A stretch of 55,791 nucleotides of DNA, the filler included, from Dimargaris cristalligena (lineage: Eukaryota), in NCBI GenBank assembly GCA_003614675.1. It is 4 parts of 4 records of this genome, joined end to end, with 100 filler letters (N's around TTAATTAATTAA, not from the genome) between each part and the next. Parts side by side here need not be neighbours in the genome. Positions count along the whole stretch, not along the records: positions 28,022 to 41,861 come from ML002974.1; 3 more parts are not named here. The stretch is one strand, 5' to 3'. The notes below the pieces were generated by a model. It saw nothing but the letters and a program-made list of their open reading frames with translations, was not told the origin of the DNA and ran no database searches. This document shows, in pieces, positions 13,914 to 46,400 of this stretch; position 1 is the first letter of the stretch, and the number at the start of each line of letters is the position of its first letter. The translations under genes were made by a program, and so were the position numbers.

Positions 13914-14013
13914 NNNNNNNNNNNNNNNNNNNNNNNNNNNNNNNNNNNNNNNNNNNNTTAATTAATTAANNNNNNNNNNNNNNNNNNNNNNNNNNNNNNN
14001 NNNNNNNNNNNNN
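13914..14013. other. Artificial contig spacer (N44-TTAATTAATTAA-N44)
   Basis: The same 100-nt linker, with stops in all frames, occurs three times. Confidence 0.98.
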
Positions 14014-17000
14014 AAGTAAAAATAGGCACTTGAACTTCGAAATAATAATCAAATGGTTGATGTTTTTTTTTGTAGTTTTCTGGTAACGAAATGAATAGGA
14101 CTGATAAAATATAAGATATTGTTTGATGAATAATTGGTTTTACAGGATGAATTGATAGAGTATAATTAAAGGAGCTGTGCTTTACGTTGATAAATGGGTT
14201 CTAATTAGTAAAGGAATCGGGTAATTAAATATGCTTCCAGTTACCTGCACTCTGCAGCACCACACTACTGTCCCATACGCGTCTGGGGATACGTATTAAA
14301 TTTCTATATGCGAGGGGTTCAACCAGGCTGTATACACCGGTAAATCCGATCAATGGCGGGTCAGTCATTGTCAGTTGGCAAATACACATTCTGTCTATTG
14401 AATTATACGTCATCTAAAACTATATTGGACTAATAATGAAAACATACCATGGTAATGGGCCTGCCACACCCCTCATCAGGTAAATACCCAACAGCTACCC
14501 AAACATTAGCATAGTAAGCACCCTGCTGTCTAGGAGACTATAGAGTTATGCCATGATAAAACAGAGGGGCTTTATCTGACATAAATCACCGCCCACATGT
14601 ACCAGGAATCCTAAAGCAGTGCGGTCATTCTGAAGAACCATGGTGGCTGTGGTAGTGAAAATATTACTGTGGGATACTGTAATGCTGTCCAATTCTTGAA
14701 AGTATGGCATAACCACCATACTGAAATACCTCATTATTTCCCAATCATCGCCTATGTGCTGAAGTTTTTTTAAAAAAAACAGCAGTCTGATTTTTATGGT
14801 CCATATCAGCTGTATTTAAATGGGTATCATTAATACCTGGACCATTCATGGTAGAATTCCGTGAACAGAGACCAGAAGGTGATGTTTTTTCTATTAGGGG
14901 CATAGCATTAGGCCATGACTATGCTATAAGTGGTTGGTGATCAATTGATCGGTGGATAAGAGGGCTCGACAGGGTTTAATAGGTGATATTGGCAGTTCAT
15001 TGGAATGCCTGGCAGGTAGGCCCATCCCCAAAGAAGTGAATACAATGGGTAACTATGAAGGATATAGCTGGTGTGGCTAGTCTGATCATCCTTGGGTGAA
15101 AGCAGACCCGGAGGTCCAGGGCGCACTACTGCATTGTTGTCATCATGAACATCTTATTACATGGAAGCATTCAGTTAATAGCCTCGGCCATAGTCCTGTC
15201 CCAGGACTGGGCGTTGTAGGACGTGCCTAAAGCCATGCTACTTGCTAATTATACCTAGCTGCAGTGTAATGACTATTGTATTATAAATCGTTGGATTACA
15301 ATTGACACACATGAAGACATTTGCGTAGGCAACGGGGTGTATCAGGGAACGGAAACTGTCGTAGGAAATAATCCTGATACTGACTAATATACACACAGCT
15401 CAGAAAAGTTACAAAAGATAATTCACATGGACAGTTGATGTGAAGGGCGTATTATAGATAACAATATGGGAGATATCGGCAGATGGAGTTAACTAAGAAA
15501 GGTGGGTAAATATTAGTGCCAATTAACTAAAGAATAACGACAGGAATCGGCTCGGTTTTATATAGCCGAGCAGACGAATGATAAAGGTGTCGAACCAGCA
15601 AAGAAGATGCTAAAAGACACTATTAGATAGTGGTATAAATGATAGTTAATAATAGATGGGCATATAATGAAGGGGATGCATGAAATATGTGAATCGAGTG
15701 GCAGGAATGGCTGAAAGAAGGTGATCCTTCAATAGGGCAGCATTCCCGCGCCTCGTTGATGGAACTAGGCGATAATGGCGCCTGGTCCTTCTTGGTTAGT
15801 GAGCTATAATCTCATTGATTATTCAGCATGACAACCACCGAGCCAGGTCGAAATCAGCATTTGGCTGTCACGGCTGGGCAGACAGTATCATTATAGAAAG
15901 TAGTTAGGAAACCAGGACGAACAAAATTCATATTCAAAATTAAAATAATGGAAATAGAATTATTGTATATATAGTACACATAATATTTTATTTTGAAGTG
16001 CACTGGCTTTAGTGTCCAGATACTTCGTGTTATGGTATAAGGAGAAATCGTTGTAGGAAACAAAGGAGATGCAGGTGTGTGAAGAGTATTTCTATCATTA
16101 TTAGAACCATATATTGTGAACAGGTGCATTGTCTTCACCATAGAATCACAAGCTAGATGAGTGGCCTAAGCCCTGTTCAATGGCAGCAATCAATTAAGTG
16201 CATGGCTGATAGCTACTGCCCCATCAAAAATCTGCTTTATAAATATACAGCTTCCCTTCCCTACAATTTTTCATCATAACTGATCTTATATCAAGCATTA
16301 TTCTTAATAAGCTTAATTTACATAGATTGTATCTGTACTACCTGGGAGGTCCGGCCTATTGCCAGTGGCCTTTGGGTTTTGCGAGGAGGCAGCAGCCTCC
16401 TTATCAGCATGGCCAAAAGTCATGGTGGCCAGCTCCCTGGTTGTTGAAGACAGGAGGTTCACAGAGTTAGAGGAAACAGGAGCAGAGTTGGGCATCATGT
16501 TGGGGTTACAGGGGGGCAGATGGTTATTAAACCAGACAGGGAACAGGGGGATAAACAAGGAGTGTCAAAGTTTATTGAGAAACAATAAAAACAAGGGAGT
16601 TGATAATTAATAATCAATAAAAGGTCGTCATTGAGTTCAAGGGATATTAAAAATGAGTTTGAAATTTAAATGAGTGATGATTATTGTCCCAAACAAGCAG
16701 GAATTCACTGGTTACTTATGTAACCATCCTGTGGGCCTTAGGGGCTGCTGGATACAAGGGAAAGGACATAGAAAAAAGGTCAAGAATAGAACAATATGGA
16801 ATAACAAGGAATCTACTGAAAAATAGGTCAGACTTTTAAATGCAAAGAAGAATGGCAGACTTTTTTAATGTAAACTGTGAGTATAAAGAAATAAATAATA
16901 TTTTGTTGGTTTTTTGTATATGCTACAGTATAGGTGATATACTTTTTTTTGTGGGTAAGTGATGGGAATGATACCACCATTGCATATCATGGTATATTCC

Positions 17001-20000
17001 ACCCTCTGACAATGAGGACTGGCTGTCTATAGTCCAGGGATAAGTGTCAACCTCTGGATGACACTATATATCCACTGCATTTATTCCCTTCCACTCCCTC
17101 CCTCCAAAGCTTCCTCACATTACTACTTTTGTTATCCCCCTCTCCCTTGAAACCAAACTCTGGCCTCAACCAGATCATCCATCAACACTCCTAGCTGCCT
17201 GTCTTATTATACACATGTGCCACTCTGCATAAATGCAGAGACTTAAAATATGTATTAGCCCTTATCAGGGCTCTACCAGCAGTCCCCCCTACACATTAGG
17301 GAGGGACTACATCCCCTACAATCCCTCTTCCGAACTCTCAGAGGCTGACAGGGGCCATTGTATGGCCCCTCCCACCACCTGGTAAATAATTCACGGGTAG
17401 TAATTGTCAATATGGGGGACTATAATGGCCAAATAACTATTGGTATTTTAGGAATGTGCTAATATTTTCTGTGAATAAACCAAGGGCAGCTGTTCAATTT
17501 ATATACAATATTCTGAGAAGTAGGAATCAATCATTGTTGCTGAATCCACTATACTGTATTTTTGATGGTGTTCAATTAAAAATACCAATATCATAATTTT
17601 GGTGGGTGATTTCTGTCAAAAATACAATGATGTTATGGCTTGATCGATAAAGACAATATGTAGAAGGACTCTTTGACCATTTTCATTTGGAGGGATTTTT
17701 GGAAAGCTAACGTGGCAATTACTATGCTACTAGTATTACCTTTTATTCCATTATTTGGCCTGGTACATTAACATACTTGTAGATGCCGGCTAGGTTATTA
17801 TCTCCTGTTATTCTGTTCTTAATAAACATGTTTCAACCACCCCCCAGTTTCTATTAACATTGACCCTTTTTTCTCTAGCCATTATAAACTAATTATTTAA
17901 ATTATAGATTCGATTATGCTTTATCTGCATGAAGCTGACGACTTCGCTATTCTAAAATTACATGTTCAGTACCAGTGAAAGACCATTGGTCTTGCAGGGG
18001 GATATCTATTTATTCGTAGTAAAGTCCAACGGGTGTACAAAATGGCCGTATATTTTATTGGCCAATTATTACAATAACAGGCATATGAGACCCGGAAAAT
18101 GCATTAGAAATTACATTGCAGCTGACATCTCTTCTGATTTTTACCACTAACAAGAATCCACCAAAACATATACCATATTTCTGATGGCAACATTAATTAA
18201 TGGACCGATACTCCCCTAAGGGTTCCCCGTGGTTTATATTCGGGATAAGTCAGCAGAAGCTCATTGTAATTTGGGGTATATACACTACTAACACTAGAAC
18301 ATATAAAATATGCTGGAATCTCACAAAGGAAATACAACAATTGTCTGCCCATTGATATTTATATTTCGAAACCATTGCTTCCTAAATAAAGTTTTAAATA
18401 TTTTTCTGATATTTCTGAACACGTCCGCTATTTTAATTACATACCACTTACACCCTCATCTATCGTCAAACATGAGTTCTGGCATCCCCTAAACCAGTGG
18501 GCCAATGTCCTCGGGCAACCCCATACCGGCTCACCAGGGATCCTCCATTCTGGCATCTAAGCCTCCTGAGAAGGAAGATGAAGCCACTTCTCCCTTTCCT
18601 AACCTCAGTTTGTTGAAGTTAGAGCAACTCATCACTACGTATTCATATATATATATATATATACCAATATTTGCATTGCTTATTCATAGGCACCTATTTT
18701 TTACTACTTCAGTCAATAACCCAAATAGAGTCTATTTGGACTTTTGTTGGTGCTGTGGCAAAATTAATGAGTAGTACGTACAACTAAATGGTGGCCATTG
18801 TGCCATTCCTATTTTGATGGACAATTAATTTGGTATGTTAAACCAATATTAATATGGATAGTTTAGTTTCTAATCTACTCAATAAAATAGTGGTGCTGAG
18901 CAGTGGAGTACCCACCTAAATACATACCAATGCGCTCTTTACTTGGTCCCAAAGCCCCATTGATGCTACTGGGGTAACTGGGGGTGGTTTATACTATTTA
19001 TATCACTCATTGTTCGCGTTATAGACCAATGGGGCACACTAAATTATGCGGTAACCAAAATTTGGACAAAGTACTAAAGAACGAGTGTATCGAATTCGAT
19101 GGTTTTATAGATACTACATGGCTTCCAATGGGGGCCGAGTTTAGAGTACCTTGACATTCTTGGCACTGTTATCCAAAGGGAAGGGTGGGGGGATGGTTCA
19201 AAACCCAACTTGCTCTTTTCATGGATTCGATTAGTTTATTTCAATGCAGCTCCTTCGAATCTTTTATCGGAGTCATGTGGTCCAAACACAGAAAGTGAGT
19301 TTACTTTGGAATGGGAGAGGTGAAGGGGTAGACAAGAAGCGGGTGCTCTGCACTACTCAAGGGCTACACACCGCCAGCCCATTTGGTGCTTCGATTGTTA
19401 ATCTATATAAAAATAAATCCCAAAGAACAGAGGCAGGAAGAAGTAGCCCTGGTCGAAAAAATGACTTCATTTGCCTATGTGTCTATCCTCCCCCCTTTCC
19501 CTTAACTATTCAAAGTACCTGCAGCTTTCCTTTTAGACTCCCGAATAGGCTACACTATTTTTGTCCAGCCCCCTTCCATTCTTTCCGGCCAGAAATATTG
19601 GATACATAGCCCGAATTCATAGACCACCGCAATAATAGGACTCCTTGGGAATACCCGCCATCGGTATTGGCCAGCAGGTCAATCAGGGTCACCGCAAGTT
19701 GACCCCAAGGCCAATTAAAACTTCTGTACCTTGATATGGCTAGACCGGGTCTCTGGGCCTTGTTCTTGGCGTTGGTGCAGGGCACCCAGTTGGTAACTTA
19801 GGCAAGACCCTAGAGGACATTCCGTTGATGCGGTGTCGCATGGAGGTGGTTGCTAAAGGGATAGGCAATGGTCCTGGATCCGCGGGATGGTATACGCGCC
19901 GGATGGTCTAGCGGGCAATGGGATAGGTCCAAACTTCCGTTGGTCGCATCAACAGTAACATCCATTGGTATGACTTGGTGATAAGGGAAACAGCAGTAAA

Positions 20001-27921: not shown

Positions 27922-28021
27922 NNNNNNNNNNNNNNNNNNNNNNNNNNNNNNNNNNNNNNNNNNNNTTAATTAATTAANNNNNNNNNNNNNNNNNNNNNNN
28001 NNNNNNNNNNNNNNNNNNNNN
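27922..28021. other. Artificial contig spacer
   Basis: N44-TTAATTAATTAA-N44. Confidence 0.98.
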
Positions 28022-28196: not shown

Positions 28197-28613
28197 AGGT
28201 GAGAGCTAGTACAAGGGTTGTGCAGCAGGCACACTTACTGGCTAATACAATGGGTAAGCATATAGGGAGTTTATTAGTTAAACTGAGGGGTAAGAAATAA
28301 GCTGAAGAACTAAACCAGTCCCAGAGGGGCCTGTTTATTTATATGTGGGGACCGCTCATCCAAGGGGTCCCTAAGAGCAATGGGATGACTAAAGAAGAGG
28401 CAAGGGTTGGGGTCTTAACTGGGGGCTTGTATCCAAAAGACTCCACTAGGAGGGGATGGACATTAGATCAGCCAGCAGAGTATTGTGTAAGAAGCATTGG
28501 GGCCCAGCCATAGTGGGTTATATAGTAAGGGAAGGGTAATATGGTACAATAAGGCAAGATAGGACAGGACAATCAGTTATTCCCTTATTTAGGGAGGATT
28601 AGGCAGGCTGACA
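28197..28613 (-). mobile_element. Truncated copy of the LTR family seen at 42853-43407
   Basis: Aligns by eye with about 42980-43407 and ends in the same TGACA terminus. It abuts the mariner relic. Confidence 0.8.
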
Positions 28614-29827
28614 AAGGTCCTATAGGAAAATTTGAAAACTCTAGTATTTTTAGTTTTTTTACTATAATTTTTCTCCTAAGTCAACTTTTCATCCCTCATT
28701 TAGTATTCAAAATTCAAAATTCCATTAAATATTAGGCTATATTATAAGCTCTGAAAAAGTGATAATAAGACCTTAGAGATAATCTAAAATATTTATGGGG
28801 ATAGTGCTGTAACTCCTAAAACTGGTTTCTGTTAGTTTGTGAGCTTTAAAGAAGGTCAGGAATAGATTAAGGATAACCCCCACTTAGGATGCCCAGAGGA
28901 AGGGTGCAGTAAGTATCATATCCAAATGGTTGCTAATATCCTGAAAACTGACCAGTAGATAACCACCCCATTACTTTAGGGAATGCCTAAAATACCTAGG
29001 TCCATTATTAACAGGGTTCTGATTAAGGATTTGCATCTGAAAAAGATCTTCACTTAGTTTATCCCCCACAAACTAACTAGTAACCAAATGATTCCCAGAG
29101 TGGACTATAGCTTGGACATGCAGAAAATGGGTAATAGTGACTAAAACTTTACCAGAAGTATTGTTATTGGTAATGAGACTTGGTACTTCTAATTAGAGCT
29201 ATCAGAAAAATGTGAAAACTTTGAGTGAGTAGGTACTGGAGATCCAAGACTGAAGAAATCACACCTTCAGCTGAGCCAAATCAAGGCTTTACTCACTGTT
29301 TTCTTTGACTCCAAGGGGATTATCCATTAGGGATTTACTCCCTAAGGCTAAACAGTCACTAGTTAGTACTACCTGGGAGTCTCAATATGCCTACTAGTAA
29401 GGATCAACTGTATATAGCCAAAGTACAAGAAGTAAGGATCCTGGAGTCTCCTCCATGATAATGAACCTATACATAAGTGTAAAATTATCTGTACATATTT
29501 GGCTAAAAGAGGTGTAGTAGTACTTGAATACCCACTACATTTACCAGATCTAGCCCCAGCTGACTTCTGGCTATTCCCAAAACTTAGGCTGGCTATAAAA
29601 GGGGAGCATTACAGCTCCTTACAGGACATTCAAGATACTGTGACTAACAGCCTAAAGGGCATCCCAAAGAATGAGTTTACAAGCTACTTATACTCATTAT
29701 TTAGGTAATTCTAGTAGTATATTAGTGAAAAAGGATATTATTTAGAACAAATAATAACATAAGTAAAAATCTTGAACTGTTTTCATTTTAGAGCACCAGT
29801 AATAAAAATTTTGGGTCAGGCCGTGTA
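28614..29827 (+). mobile_element. Degenerate mariner (DD34D) transposon; transposase pseudogene about 28700-29750; probable right TIR ending ...GGTCAGGCCGTG plus TA
   Basis: Translation through stops gives YGDSAVTPK...FKEGQE*IKDNPHLGCP, FIPHKLT, IVIGNETW, LTVFFDSKGIIH, WSLLHDNEP and HLPDLAPADFWLFPKL. There are 34 residues between the 2nd and 3rd catalytic D. The left end is replaced by the LTR copy. Confidence 0.92.
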
Positions 29828-30128: not shown

Positions 30129-32573
30129 ATGGGCTCCCAATTTCGGCACAAGCGGAAACACCAGGCCCATCGGCACGGGCGTGATTATGACGACAATGAC
30201 GGTGATTCCGACGATGACCTTATTTCAATTGGAACTGGTTTCGATGAAGCCCCCTCGGGGTCGGGTCCCCAGCGAGGCTCGCGGAGAAACCGGGTGGGTC
30301 AATCGGACCCCTCCCTTCCCGTCGAAGACTATAAACCCCTTTGGCAGCAAGAGGCCCGGAATGAGAGTGGTGAACAGCGTTTCCACGGCGCCTTCACGGG
30401 TGGCTTTAGTGCTGGGTACTTTAATACCGCTGGCTCCAAAGAGGGCTGGGCCCCCAGTCAGTTCCATTCCTCCCGGGCCCTTAAAAAAAAGGTCCAAGCG
30501 GAACAGGCGTCCATTATTAGTCCCGCTGACTCTCGCAAACCGACTACCGATGGCAAACTGCCGACCCCTATTCCCGGCCAACGCGTCGAAGACATCATGG
30601 ACAAGGAAGACTTGGCGGATTTACACAGCAAGCAGAGCTCATTACCCAAAATTCGATCCCAGTTTGGCGCCCGAAAGGCCAACAAGAGAAAATCCAAAGT
30701 CAGTCAAGCCGGGAAAGGCCAACTCAGTTTTGATGTGGATGATGACTACGAAAATGACGGGGTGGACGCCGGCTATTTCGGGGACGAACTGGAAATCGTT
30801 GTACCACGCAGTCGGGGTGACGGTTCCCTGGATCGGGGTATTAAAAATACTATTCCCACCGCTCTGTCTGGTGGGGCCGCCGACGCTCGGACGCAGGCGA
30901 AATCCGGATTTCGATTCACCCGGGATATGAGAGGCCCTGGATCAGCAATAGTTGATACAAAAGGTCTGGTTGATGCCATGGTGGGGCGGATTGCCTCGGA
31001 GTTAGACTCAGGTACCGATGAGCCATCCGCACCCCTTCCCATCGGTGTCCAGTTGCTGGCCAAAATTGGCTGGAATCGCCAAATTTCGAAACCACAGGCC
31101 CAGTCGGTAATGCTGAGTCACTCCCAACCTAACTTGAGTAATAGTGAAGCCAATCTACCTAATGCAAGGCCAGGACACTGCAGAGACACCGGCGCAATTG
31201 CGAGTACGTCGGGTCCTCAGTTAGCATCTAGTGTAAGCACGAATCAGGAACCGACCAATTCAGTACCTATCGCGATAACCGCTCCGCCCATCCAACGAGG
31301 CACGTTTCGTACGGTCATTGTAGATAGTGACGATGAAGATGGCGAGTCGCGCCATCAGCAGGTGCCGCCGACCCAACCAGTTTCTACTCGTCCATCGGTA
31401 ACACTATCCCAGCCCGTGGCGCCTACTTCTACACCTGATCGGCTTACTATTGTTTCATCTAATACGGTAGAAATTCCTTTGGGCTATGCCATTACGCACC
31501 AGCGGAAATACGGGCGGTGTCATGATGGGCTACCACCGCTTCAGGGATTTACTTTGATAGACGAGCGACCTTCGCACGGTCATCGCCCGGATACCATTCA
31601 GCGTACATCTATTCCTAGTGACTTTATCCCAGGCCGTTACCTTGAAAGAATTCTTACACTTCGCCTCCCAAAAGACGCACCATCCAAAACGACGCGTCGT
31701 GGTAAGCAGTCGTCCCAACCACAGAGATCTCACTCACCGTCGAAGCGAGCTGATGACAATTGCCAAATCAGTGATTCTACATCTGTATTAACCTATTTAT
31801 CCAGTAAGGCCCAGCAGCGATTAACCCACTATGCTGACCTGGCGGCCCAACGGCTTGCGAGCCCTGTACGTTCCAACAAAGCTACTCTCCCTCCCTGTCA
31901 TTCCACCACTCAACGCCTTATTCAGAAGGCACGTATCGAATCGGCCGCGCGCAAGAGGTCCGATTCGACCGGTCCCACCTCGGCTTCCCCTGACACACCC
32001 CAAGGTCACCTGTCCGGCTTTGTCCGGGTTCAACAAGATAAGAGCATGGTCCGGCAACCGGGATTATACCAACCGCCAACCAAATGGCCGGCTGGATTGT
32101 CCGAATCCCGGGGCTTATCGTCGACCAACCCCTCGCTTACCTCGGAAACGTCAGCAACCAAGCAGGTACCGCTGCCCCCTAAGCTTTTGATTACCCAAAC
32201 TCGGGGCGATCCTTGGTTTAAAGCAGCCATTGATGCGGCTGCAATGAAATTCTATGGTCCACTAACTCGCCGTGTTACCGCATTTTACCCCCACCCTCTA
32301 CTTAGCCGCCGACTCAATCTTCCGCCATTGACTACTTCGACGGATTCGAGCAAATCCCGGCCTCCCACCCAATCGTCAACATGGCGAAATAAATGGGACT
32401 GGCCCGGGGAACAACCGGCCCACCCTAAGGTAGAGCAACCATCCGCTTCCCGAGATAAATCGGAACAGCCCCCGAACGACTCGGCGGACGATGGTCTGAT
32501 ATTACCCTCTGAAGTGTCTTTGGAACCCAAGCCGCCTATGAGTTTATTCAAGTCCATTTTCGAAGACGTCTGA
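30129..32573 (+). CDS. GPATCH1: GPATCH1/DUF1604 family spliceosome-associated protein, intronless
   Basis: [61 protein letters not shown] and C-terminal [12 protein letters not shown]. Confidence 0.9.
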
Positions 32574-41861: not shown

Positions 41862-41961
41862 NNNNNNNNNNNNNNNNNNNNNNNNNNNNNNNNNNNNNNN
41901 NNNNNTTAATTAATTAANNNNNNNNNNNNNNNNNNNNNNNNNNNNNNNNNNNNNNNNNNNN
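41862..41961. other. Artificial contig spacer
   Basis: N44-TTAATTAATTAA-N44. Confidence 0.98.
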
Positions 41962-42038
41962 TCAGGGGCATACTTCCGATAAGTGCGAAAAATGGATTAA
42001 AAATAAAAGTAAGTAAAAAATGTGGTAAGTTCACCACA

Positions 42039-42227
42039 CCCCCTTGTACTAACTAGTAAGTGTGCCTACTGCACATCCCTTGCATATACCTGTGCTTATC
42101 CTTTATTAGCTAGTATGGTGACCCATCCTAATACTAGTGGCCACTTGGCTGAGTCTAAGCCCCACCTACCATTAGAAGCCTATCCCCAAGACTCTTGACA
42201 GACTAAGAGTGGTTAATTTGGGTAACA
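42039..42227 (+). mobile_element. Partial LTR copy, inverted relative to 42853-43040
   Basis: Its reverse complement TGTTACCCAAATTAACCACTCTTAGTCTGTCAAGAGTC... aligns with 42853 onward. Confidence 0.85.
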
Positions 42228-42852
42228 CTTAGTTAGTTGTACTCATATGTACTTATTCTTAATACCCTTACTTAATGGTGGCCTATAGTTCATTGATGCT
42301 GTTGAAGGACAGTTATAGCTCTGACTTATTTCTACTACCTTCAGTCTGAGCCATTGATTCCTTTTTTGTATTTTTCATCACAATGGTCTTTCACTGATAA
42401 GTATATGCCAAATAAATGTCACCACAGTGATTCTAGTCATATTCCTGTGTTTCTGTTGATACTGCACCACTGGAATTGTCCAGGATTGAACTAGATACCC
42501 AGACAACCAGCCAGAATACTGTGGACTAGTATTATGCCCCAACTGGGAATCAATAGGGACTTTAGTATAAAATGAGATAAATGTGTGGCCCAGAAGTAGT
42601 TGCTTAGATACCTATACTCCCACTTGATTAATTACTATTATACATGTGTCAGCTATTTTATTCCCTTTAGTTTATATTGGAATACTAAGGATGTAAAGGA
42701 AATAAAACTGGAAGTAAGGGAAGAAAGCAGCTAGAGGACAGTAGGTGCCTCTAGGTGGTTAGTTTCATTGAACTGTATTTTCAAGGGGGTGAAATATATG
42801 TGGCTAACATAAATGATCTCATAATAGCAGACTAAACTAATATAATTGGATG

Positions 42853-43407
42853 TGTCACCCAGGTTACCACTCTTAGTCTGTCAAGAGTCCCGGGGATAGG
42901 CTTCTAATGGTAAGCAGGCTTAGGCTTAGCTAAGTGGCTACTAGTGTTAGGTACGGGGCACAGTACTAACCAAATAAGGGCAAGTGCAGTAACTATGCAA
43001 GGGATGTGCAGTGGAGCACACTTACTGGTCAGTATAAGGGCGGGTGAGTGTATAGGGAGTTTATTGGGGTAAACTATGGGGGTAAGAAATAAGCTGAAGA
43101 ACTGAACTGGTCCCAGAGGGGCCCAGTTATTTATATGCAGGGACCATTCATAGTGAGAGGTCCCTAAGAGAAATGGGATGATTAGATAAAGAGGTGGGGG
43201 GCAGAGTCTCGACTGGGGCTTGCTTCTGGAAGACTCCACTTGGAAAGGAGGAACATTGGATCAGCCAGTGGAGTATGGTGTGAGAAGCATTAGGACCTGG
43301 TTATAGTGGGTTATATAGTTAAGGGAGGGGTAATATGGTGCTATAAGGTAAGATAGGATGGGATGATTGGCATTCCCGTATTTTAGGAAGGATTAGATGG
43401 ACTGACA
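42853..43407 (-). mobile_element. Solo LTR (555 bp) with 5-bp target site duplication GGATG
   Basis: Termini TGTCA...TGACA. GGATG at 42848-42852 and 43408-43412. On the minus strand, TATAAATA (43135-43128) precedes AATAAA (43065-43060). Confidence 0.92.
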
Positions 43408-46400
43408 GGATGAAACAGGATAGGATAAAGGACACGTAGAAACATATTCTTCAACAGTTTATTAATAAACTGCTTATTACATTATATATTATATTCCTAT
43501 ACTGGCGTACACTCAATATTAGCATTTCTACCATTGTCCAATCTTGAATATTTACTATAGCTTCCCGGTTCTATAGTCACTAAGGGTATTCACAGCTAGT
43601 CACAACAATATGTACGTGTTAAAAGAGCATGAAGTATGAGCGGTGTTTATTAAGGAATGAATATATGCAGTATGAACTTGCTGAAGCGATGTGAAGGCTA
43701 GCAAACTGGAGAACAAGAGTGTATACCCATTACTTATTTATATGGATCATAAAAGGCACCCGAGAAGCCTAAGGGGGGGTCGATAACATATTCGTCAAAC
43801 CTTCCGGAATAGGATTCTCGACAACAGAACTGGCGACGTCCTTGGAGGGTATTGATTTACCAGGGGCCCCTGTGCTAGACATATATAGCTGGGATTTATT
43901 CTCGATAGGAGGTGCTGTGGCTGAAACTACAGGATAGGTTGAATCAACGAGCTACAAAGAAATCACACTGCTTTGATGCCCCGGGTCGGGCCCTATATTG
44001 GCTACGGATTTAACATACACACTATTGCCCATGACTCCGAACGGCAGCCTATATGGTGGTTTTAGGAGGGTGTCCAAATGTTCTCCAAGTAAAGAGACTA
44101 TCTATCTAACAATTTATAATGCACTTACGCATTAATTTCAGTAAATGTGTTTGATGTATCACTGGCCGTATTCACCGCATCCTTTTGATATGTACTACAT
44201 AGGCAAACCTAATATACTATAGGTTTCCTAAGTCAATATGGCGGCTTTCGCCAAATCTGGTATTTCTTAAACCTCACCCTACGTTCCTTGTCAGCAGTTT
44301 CCCGGATTTAGTACTACTTGGTGGCTACTACCGATGCTTAAAAATAATACAACAGCTATTTTATCTATTTAGAACATGAATATCATTAATACAAGAGAGA
44401 GGCGGCGGTATGCTGGTGTAATTTTTTCAAATAATTATTCAATAAGTTTGTGTAATAAACTAATTAAAATTGTATGCATTAATAACCCCTCATAAATCGA
44501 CAGTCTGGAAATATAGACCCCAATAATTATGTTTAATCGCTGACTATCCAATTCCCACTAATATAAATTTATAATTATCACAATGGCCCGATTCATAATT
44601 TCCCACTGCATTTGTTGGCTGGGACCCTACGCTATGACCAATGCAGAATAAATCATGGGAATCGTAGGATACCTTTGCTGAAGCCATCGTAAAATTATCA
44701 CCATACTACTACTCTCCACTGGAAACTACCGCGAAATTGCTGGTTAAATCTAGCCTGCCTTATAGGACATTGATGAGGAGACCATTGTAACCTCCTATAC
44801 ATTGTGCCTTGAAACATAGAAGTAAATAATGTTCTGAAGGCCTACCGATCCACAAGCCAACAAAGAGACAATTCACGGTTGACTTCTTTATACCATACTT
44901 CACTGATTCCTTTGTGGTGGATGTACCTGGTGGTAAGGAAGGGGGTGACAGTATGCATGCTGGTCACATATATGCCAGAATACCCCATTGTTAGTATGGT
45001 ATGAATAGATGGCGACATTGGTCAAATTAAAACTAATCAGGCCCAACTTTTGAATATAAAACGGTGAGCGTGCCTCTCACTAAGCCGTCAAATCAGCTTT
45101 TTTAATCATTTTTCTTAAGCCAAGCATTTCTACCAGGAATTATAATGTCGAATTCAAAATCTGTGACGAGCAACTCCCGAATTGTCCTAAAAACTACTGT
45201 TCCACTCACACCTGCCCATCATACCCCATTAGGTGCCCAGGCCTCGGCAGAAATGCCGACAAAAAATATTTTTAGCCATCCTTCTCAGGATAGCACTTCT
45301 ATTCCTGACATAGTACCGTGTCGGGATTATGACACACGACGGCCCAGGGAGCCAATAAACCCTAGGCCGCCGGGCCCAAACCCAACAGGCCAGGATTAAA
45401 TTATCCTGAAGTATCAGCTTAATAACTAGTCAATAACTTGGACCGGTTATTTAATTGATATGTTTATCTGTTTTGGTATTTTGGATAAAGTACAATTGCC
45501 TTTGAGTGATGCCAGTCTATTTATACTAGAAGTCAACCCGGCGCCAATAGTAAATTGGTACTCGAAGCGTAATTATAGCAGTATAATGGAAATAGTCGAC
45601 TACCGATATATTACTGTTGTACGGCGTCTTTATGTATGCCCCAGCCACCTTCAAAGTCAATGATGTGGTGCTAGCTTTCCCCCTTTTACATTTCTTTGGA
45701 AGACACTAGTTTAGCCATTAGGTTATGGCATTCAAATTCAAAATGCCTACTTGTTCTGTGTTTTACTACCATAAACAATTCACATATTTCTAGTAATAAA
45801 TTTTTAAAACCTCTGCCCAACATTACTTTAGCACTTGCCAATTCAAAGACCCTACTATAGATTGGTAGTACATATATACTGTACTGCCATAGGCTCAGAT
45901 GAATTTCCCTTCCCATGAGACAACCTAGGTATATTCCCTCACCACATAATGGCTGCACATTCAATATCCACAGTTACACTCTTTGAGCAAGCACTTGGAA
46001 GACCTCCATTTTGCTGATCAGTGTTTGGGCCTAATCACTTCCACTTCCAATAGACCTACTAACTATTTCTAATTTTGTCAGTTACATGATTCCAGATGAG
46101 TCAGTGGGAATATCCTTCACATTAGAATAAGGGGAGCGACATCCAAGTTTTTCCTTATTTATATCTTATTTTTATGAACACCCCAGAGGATCTGAGGCAC
46201 TTTTCATTTTCTGTTTTCCATTTTCCATATTTCCTTTCTATTTTCGTACATTGTTTAACCCTAAGGACCCAACCAGTTTTCTCCCTTTGTGGTTTCATGG
46301 TTGTCAGTTTGTTTGAGGATGACATCCAAAAGGTCATAGTGTAGTCTTAAGGCTGTAACATCGATTTTTCTTATTTATAGTCTCCCAGTTAGCCCTTAAA

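Follow-up and report, generated by a model that had tools for sequence, protein, structure and literature searches.

A transposon remnant in the genome of a Dimargaritales fungus has lost all of its CpG dinucleotides, and the mariner family to which it belongs carries in addition an excess of C to T changes at CpA. With a probability of roughly 0.58, this reflects gradual decay of repeats in which DNMT1 methylation, heavy at CpG and secondary at CpA, would be followed by dispersed deamination on both strands. Of this reading, the mutation spectrum, its direction, its confinement to repeats and the presence of the enzymes are shown directly.

The CpG-free block, its mariner and the host

The stretch of 55,791 nucleotides analysed here (filler included; hereafter the window) consists of four separate contigs of similar length, joined by N-linkers with a TTAATTAATTAA core at 13914-14013, 27922-28021 and 41862-41961. 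The block of interest sits at the start of contig C767 and adjacency across the linkers is artificial, so that its only true neighbour is the right-hand gene. The features are the following.

27922-28021, no strand: N-linker between the unrelated contigs C766 and C767
28040-28200, no strand: terminal part of a short, very abundant repeat, lying where the contig begins and occurring again at 41963-42019
28205-28615, no strand: high-copy repeat of about 410 bp, CpG-stripped and with a CpA excess
28355-29821, no strand: CpG-free run, 0 CpG with about 51 expected
28625-29827, plus strand: remnant of a mariner (Tc1/mariner, DDE) DNA transposon, about 100 bp including the left terminal inverted repeat being absent
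28701-29750, plus strand: dead transposase frame, collinear with the intact transposase P0102 (61% identity), with 19 internal stops
29797-29827, plus strand: right terminal inverted repeat sequence, then TA; it matches the left ends of other copies in inverted orientation
30129-32573, plus strand: neighbouring DUF1604/G-patch gene with normal CpG, the same-contig control

The CpG-free run comprises the tail of the 410-bp repeat and the 5'-truncated mariner. The CpGs nearest to it are at 28353 and 29822, and this gap of 1469 is the longest between CpGs in the window; the right-hand one, the first to survive, sits inside the right terminal inverted repeat. Base shuffles of the run (n=2000) gave a minimum of 33 CpGs, and the absence of CpG over about 1.47 kb, described in an earlier note on this DNA, was thereby confirmed. 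The same note had called the flanking genes CpG-rich, which holds for the right gene (180 CpGs vs. 179 expected) but not for the left, where the supposed flanking gene lies on a different contig beyond the N-linker. In contigs of a second-study run the mariner block was recovered in pieces of 617, 157 and 151 bases, which contain 2, 0 and 1 differences, respectively. Such near-identical sequence means that the block is not an artefact of whole-genome amplification, and that explanation was rejected. Elsewhere in the window, positions 41963-43450 form another CpG-stripped block, with a 905-bp CpG-free run and nested inverted repeats, and positions 16330-17070 belong to a CpG-stripped 740-bp family whose copies differ in age, one of them retaining 20 CpGs.

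The host is placed in the Dimargaritales (Zoopagomycota). For RPB3, encoded on contig C765, identity to the Tieghemiomyces, Dispira and Dimargaris proteins is 75, 72 and 70%, respectively, and the catalytic region of DNMT1 in the genome assembly (G000) is 75-80% identical to those of the same three genera. These identities bear out the view that the organism is a non-Dikarya fungus, and not a Pezizomycotina ascomycete. The genes of C767 have a GC content of 0.54-0.56 and 73-77 CpGs per kb, the same as the RPB3 and DNMT1 loci. Some foreign DNA is nevertheless present in the assembly, since two eukaryotic SSU rRNA genes in it are unlike each other, with 75-84% identity where they align; two AT-rich SSU-like genes were found additionally (all four among L170, L171, L172 and L173). 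This suggests that another organism has contributed DNA, perhaps the fungal host.

The element had rightly been recognized as a mariner, as the window copy matches PF01359. P0102, an intact transposase of almost the same family from public contigs, matches PF17906, PF01359 and PF13358 (Mos1-type HTH and DDE transposase), and the family belongs to Tc1/mariner by its HTH/DDE transposase and by its short terminal inverted repeats, which in several copies have TA next to them. P0102 is 82% identical to the ancestor built in our script and was used as the outside reference for polarity. The named relatives of P0102 are arthropod sequences, and horizontal transfer of the mariner into the Dimargaritales fungus is possible. 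Among 43 DNA matches in G000, 12 long mariner copies (the window copy and 11 further ones, 79-82% identity) were aligned; the remaining 31, which reached no further than the initial 85 bases of the query or an inverted end, were left out. All 12 copies are dead, with stops or frameshifts in each. An unmutated DNA copy of the mariner was sought in vain in G000 (40 DNA and 20 protein candidates scored), the listed contig pieces of four runs showed no evident one, and metagenome contigs gave a single distant (34%) match.

Mutation spectrum of the mariner copies

In pairwise comparisons of the mariner copies transitions are 4.4 times as frequent as transversions. In the copies, the 36 column pairs accepted as former CpGs by the strict criterion now show TG 143 times, CA 141, TA 69 and CG 9 times. 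Similarly, at arginine codon starts anchored on P0102 (197 cells) CA occurs 76 times, TG 73, TA 41 and CG 4 times, i.e., CpG has been lost in 98% of the cells and symmetrically on the two strands. A consensus with restored CpGs gave too many CpG sites (69 by the loose and 36 by the strict count), and the conclusions are therefore based on the strict columns and on the outside protein. In columns with majority letter C and an invariant next base, T is carried by 78/83 CpA columns (26% of cells), compared with 11/42 CpC (2.7% of cells) and 28/86 CpT columns (4.5%), or 39/128 for the latter two together. The P0102-anchored counts, which include only codons whose sequence context is fixed by the residue, gave 137/404 mutated cells (34%) of CpA type vs. 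59/868 (7%) of CpC/CpT type, with 35/38 and 33/81 of the sites hit, respectively (p=4e-8). TGG codons have changed to TAG 102 times and to TGA 14 times. The rates per C are approximately 1.9 : 0.41 : 0.04-0.07 for CpG, CpA and CpC/CpT, the CpG value being a floor due to saturation. A CpA bias beyond AT drift, on which the earlier note had staked its proposal, is real by the column and the anchored counts alike, and at the level of sequence these settle the question for the mariner family.

The TA dinucleotides at former CpGs, far in excess over background (p=1e-10), need a second, CpA-type hit after the first change. Their share of 0.21 (95% CI 0.15-0.27), considered as a sign of whether CpA mutation ceases once the CpGs are exhausted, fits both a constant (0.26) and a coupled model (0.18). 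The CpA rate shows no dependence on the distance to former CpGs (0.26, 0.26, 0.29 and 0.20), and the 5' context of the changes ranges from 0.30 to 0.49 across the four bases, none being marked and none of a TpCpN type.

The 19 stops of the window transposase include eight derived from Gln, two from Trp and six from Arg, the last with both letters of the CG altered; three require a transversion. Compared with P0102, the window copy has 136 residue differences, part of which predates the insertion: 90 can be explained by C>T/G>A only, 13 by T>C/A>G only, one is mixed and 32 involve a transversion. C>T and G>A changes are thus the majority, but the statement that nearly all lesions are of this kind was overstated. 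Likewise, GDETW>GNETW, EDD>KDN and the Arg to stop changes, previously listed as CpA-type, do contain one CpA-type step, but the sites are former CpGs that have been hit twice.

It could be argued that the CpG decay alone is real, and that the CpA excess is a consensus artefact or reflects shared ancestry or a genome-wide bias unrelated to repeats. We find this very improbable, and for the mariner family it is largely refuted. The copies do show slight subfamily structure (p=0.016), but their tree is near-star, and private changes alone fall in 13/20 CpA columns vs. 29/126 CpC/CpT columns. In addition, P0102 gives ancestral C at 67/74 informative CpA-context sites vs. 58/109 CpC/CpT sites. The artefact reading is helped by a TpA observed/expected ratio of about 1 in much of the unique DNA and by the modest excess in other repeat families. 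The real copy pairs described below stand against it, and so does the symmetry of intact paralogues.

Other repeats and duplicated genes

T makes up 11.7% at CpA columns in the 740-bp family (19 of 20 fetched loci, after a length filter) and 11.3% in the 410-bp family (30 loci; 339 first-look candidates in G000, 40 of them scored), compared with 1.8-4.5% at CpC/CpT columns in the two families. The CpA excess is accordingly weaker than in the mariner. For a directional comparison of young and old copies, 12 real pairs were picked and six pooled, after four pairs reusing a copy and two pairs of intact paralogues had been dropped. The pooled counts are 272 vs. 24 at CpG, 213 vs. 105 at CpA, 92 vs. 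63 at CpC (p=0.02) and 107 vs. 118 at CpT; taken pair by pair, the CpA excess is not significant in three of the six. A LINE pair that formerly had almost no CpG shows 18 vs. 3 CpA>TpA changes and 5 vs. 5 at CpC. This loss in a CpG-poor element, together with the missing distance effect in the mariner, indicates that a nearby CpG is not required, and that maintenance at hemimethylated CpG alone is insufficient.

The retroelement pair L061 and L071 behaves differently, with former CpGs read as CA 28 and as TG 8 times and an excess at CpC instead of CpA; selection on the reading frame may lie behind this odd spectrum. More distant retroelement pairs (65-75%) were discarded as uninformative for the spectrum, since synonymous change dominates in them. 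Five LINE-like elements of G000 (L075, L076, L078, L079 and L085) have long open frames almost free of CpG (9 observed vs. 106 expected in L076 and 29 vs. 175 in L075), their remaining CpGs mostly equalling the count of arginine CGN codons. They are possibly active retroelements with evolved CpG avoidance.

The genes of G000 have a CpG observed/expected ratio near 1. Around the 12 mariner copies CpG survival per 100 bp is 0-0.3 inside, 0.8 at the end and approximately 4 at a distance of some 400 bp from the element, climbing at the element ends and across approximately 300 bp of flank.

RIP is characterized by clustered, strand-coordinated mutations with a load that is uneven among copies, and it targets any duplication above approximately 400 bp and 80% identity. 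A true RIP-like system, with premeiotic recognition of homology and both CpG and CpA mutated by a RID-like or convergent enzyme, is a poor candidate here. It does share with our data the directional C>T changes concentrated in repeats, the preference for CpA over CpC/CpT and the death of all mariner copies, and the product index (1.26) and composite index (0.19) agree with it. CpA is, however, not the preferred target, given the near-complete loss of CpG, the substrate index is 1.07 and the excess of transitions is just the 4.4-fold one given above. Adjacent events lie on the same strand in 352/687 cases vs. 341±12.5 after shuffling, with no strand runs (p=0.20-0.64), and neither per-copy strand bias nor overdispersion of CpA hits was detected (P=0.17; heterogeneity P=0.17-0.90), although many weak rounds of RIP could mask clustering in these tests. 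Subtilase paralogue pairs, one of 2.1 kb at 84% identity and one of 2.6 kb at 80%, have kept their CpGs and differ symmetrically, so duplications in the RIP range have been spared, with a possible survivor bias, as selection acts on which paralogues survive. The HSP70 paralogues, at 77% identity or less, had diverged too far for a test of the threshold. Retroelements with long open frames also persist, including one pair of 99.8% identity. In favor of RIP, two subtilase (S8) pseudogenes (L161 on contig C1595 and L162 on C2038) have been stripped of nearly all CpGs (1 vs. 86 in the intact paralogue), which shows that the decay process can destroy host gene copies.

As to other Zoopagomycota, RIP indices are reported for Zoophthora and Entomophthora, with caveats by the authors, in PMC11105155. 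In a kingdom-wide screen from 2025 (PMC12543289), RIP-like signatures are confined to ascomycetes and 8/8 Zoopagomycota are scored as "no_rip", by a coarse k-mer screen of scaffolds >50 kb. By the properties compared here the feature falls outside RIP, and is better classified as a decay of repeats, probably linked to methylation, in which the CpA component resembles RIP. CpG and non-CpG methylation with deamination, one of the two mechanisms proposed in the earlier note, fits better, and the repeat-targeted RIP-type system is left unsupported: CpG is the main target, runs and bursts are missing, duplicates are spared and no RID-like match was obtained in the searches described below.

Methylation enzymes and related systems

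G000 encodes a DNMT1 (locus L033:3480-6770) with RFD, BAH and methylase domains and intact PPCQ and ENV motifs, the C-terminal part of which runs off the contig. It is a close relative of Ascobolus Masc2, i.e., of the Masc2 type. Directly behind the ENV motif, G000 and Tieghemiomyces have a Tyr and Dispira a Gln, whereas 67/83 scored homologues have an Arg. A UHRF1-like PHD-SRA-RING protein is also encoded, and five Piwi matches were obtained. Searches of the G000 contigs with PF00145, TIGR00675 and DNMT1 queries returned no RID-like gene, but only DNMT1 and a second methylase gene, which by its motifs we take to be DNMT2-like. The absence of RID, DIM-2 and DNMT5 from this assembly of 2220 contigs, searched via a loose first-look filter, is weak evidence, and the same holds for APOBEC_N, which had no match in G000.

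In the decay that we favor, the Masc2-type DNMT1 would mark repeats with the aid of the UHRF1-like reader. Repeat CpG would be heavily methylated and CpA less, yet substantially, and the methylcytosines would deaminate singly, across many cell generations and on both strands. As a result CpG would be almost wholly lost and CpC/CpT would stay near background, while CpA, including the CpA/TpG newly made from CpG, would erode more slowly to TpA. Targeting would follow transposon or heterochromatin status and not the pairing of any two similar sequences. We infer that methylation takes place, that DNMT1 writes the CpA marks and that the process is vegetative. The hierarchy CpG >> CpA > CpC/CpT, the strand-symmetric CpG loss confined to repeats and the joint presence of an RFD-BAH-methylase DNMT1 and a UHRF1-like partner support the model. 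Against it speak the CpA rate, which at 5-10 times that of CpC/CpT is high for a maintenance-type DNMT1, the restriction of CpA signatures to RID/Masc1 genomes in PMC4352252 and the CpG loss of the two subtilase pseudogenes; many weak RIP rounds, furthermore, would likewise erase strand runs.

Alternatively, passive CpG deamination might be combined with an active, RID-independent CpA>TpA mutator, a DNMT1-family enzyme or a partner of it, working in vegetative heterochromatin. This is rather unlikely in our judgment, even if it accounts well for a CpA loss that is unaffected by local CpG, reaches nearly all CpA columns, has no flanking preference except for the 3' A and strikes also the sites newly made from CpG (21% TA). 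PMC8016269 describes a DNMT1-family enzyme capable of mitotic CpA mutation; there, however, Zymoseptoria tritici spares CpG, with >98% of the changes at CA, whereas the Dimargaritales mariner is changed mainly at CpG. Nor do the second-study contigs favor ongoing mutation, with 3 differences in 925 mariner bases (the three internal contigs listed) vs. 6 in 3034 bases of the neighboring gene contig, both small counts. Sequence alone cannot separate an active CpA mutator from methylation with spontaneous deamination.

The nearest precedents appear to be Tuber (CpG and CpA) and Zymoseptoria with its Dim2-dependent CpA mutator active in mitosis. According to PMC4352252, CpA signatures occur exclusively in genomes with RID/Masc1, Masc2-type enzymes are linked to CpG decay, genomes with Masc2 only show CpG changes only, and Tuber has both. 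In Tuber melanosporum transposons CpG is the dominant and CpA the secondary context of C>T changes, similarly to the Dimargaritales repeats, and repeat methylation reaches approximately 80% at CG and 30% at non-CG sites, the indices showing no RIP and the process being judged MIP-like (PMC4165359). Tuber is, however, an ascomycete with a RID/Masc1 gene (PMC4352252), whereas in the Dimargaritales genome, outside Dikarya, only the Masc2-type DNMT1 was found. Microbotryum and the rusts share with it the repeat-confined CpG loss and the Masc2-type RFD-BAH enzyme, and have no RID, for which the G000 searches also gave no match, but according to PMC4352252 only CpG is affected in them (in Microbotryum in a TpCpG context), unlike the CpA changes at 5-10 times background and with no 5' context seen here. 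CpG is thus not the sole elevated context, as it is in the Masc2-linked decay of PMC4352252, since CpA is raised in three repeat families and in the retroelement pairs. In Zymoseptoria CpA>TpA changes affect methylated repeats, are tied to a DNMT1-family enzyme and do not need meiosis, as may be the case in our fungus; it differs in being a RID-bearing ascomycete whose enzyme is DIM-2 and in which CpG is spared, as opposed to a Masc2-type enzyme and CpG as the main target (PMC8016269). RFD-bearing DNMT1 is associated with CG preference in PMC7862722 and PMC13297926. Neurospora and Pezizomycotina RIP has in common with the Dimargaritales pattern the C>T changes in repeats, CpA over CpC/CpT, and dead collinear frames rich in TAA/TAG. 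It differs in that the latter has CpG as its main target, no RID found and no strand-coordinated bursts, and in that similar gene copies as well as young, intact elements have survived in it. For lower fungi, CpG decay of the kind linked to Masc2/DNMT1 was reportedly treated by Clutterbuck in 2017, and that work and the one by Bewick et al. from 2019 may already cover the CpG loss or enzyme content of the group to which Dimargaritales belong. Our literature search, with subscription papers mostly outside its scope, found no alignment-based CpA signature for Dimargaritales.

CpA-directed C>T change in repeats is usually taken as diagnostic of RIP and thereby of RID/Masc1 enzymes. Here a polarised CpA bias is combined with near-total loss of CpG in a fungus of the Zoopagomycota, and the searches of its genome turned up no more than a DNMT1 of the Masc2 type and the DNMT2-like gene. 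If DNMT1-family enzymes alone leave a CpA signature, CpA indices would be weaker as evidence for RIP; alternatively, fungi other than Dikarya acquired or retained a mutator resembling RIP. Dimargaritales may tentatively be suspected of having a RID-independent, repeat-directed CpA mutator, a Masc2-type DNMT1 or its partner, which would erode transposons after CpG has been exhausted. If true, non-Dikarya fungi would have reached a RIP-like result by a route of their own, and this would break the published link between the CpA signature and RID/Masc1.
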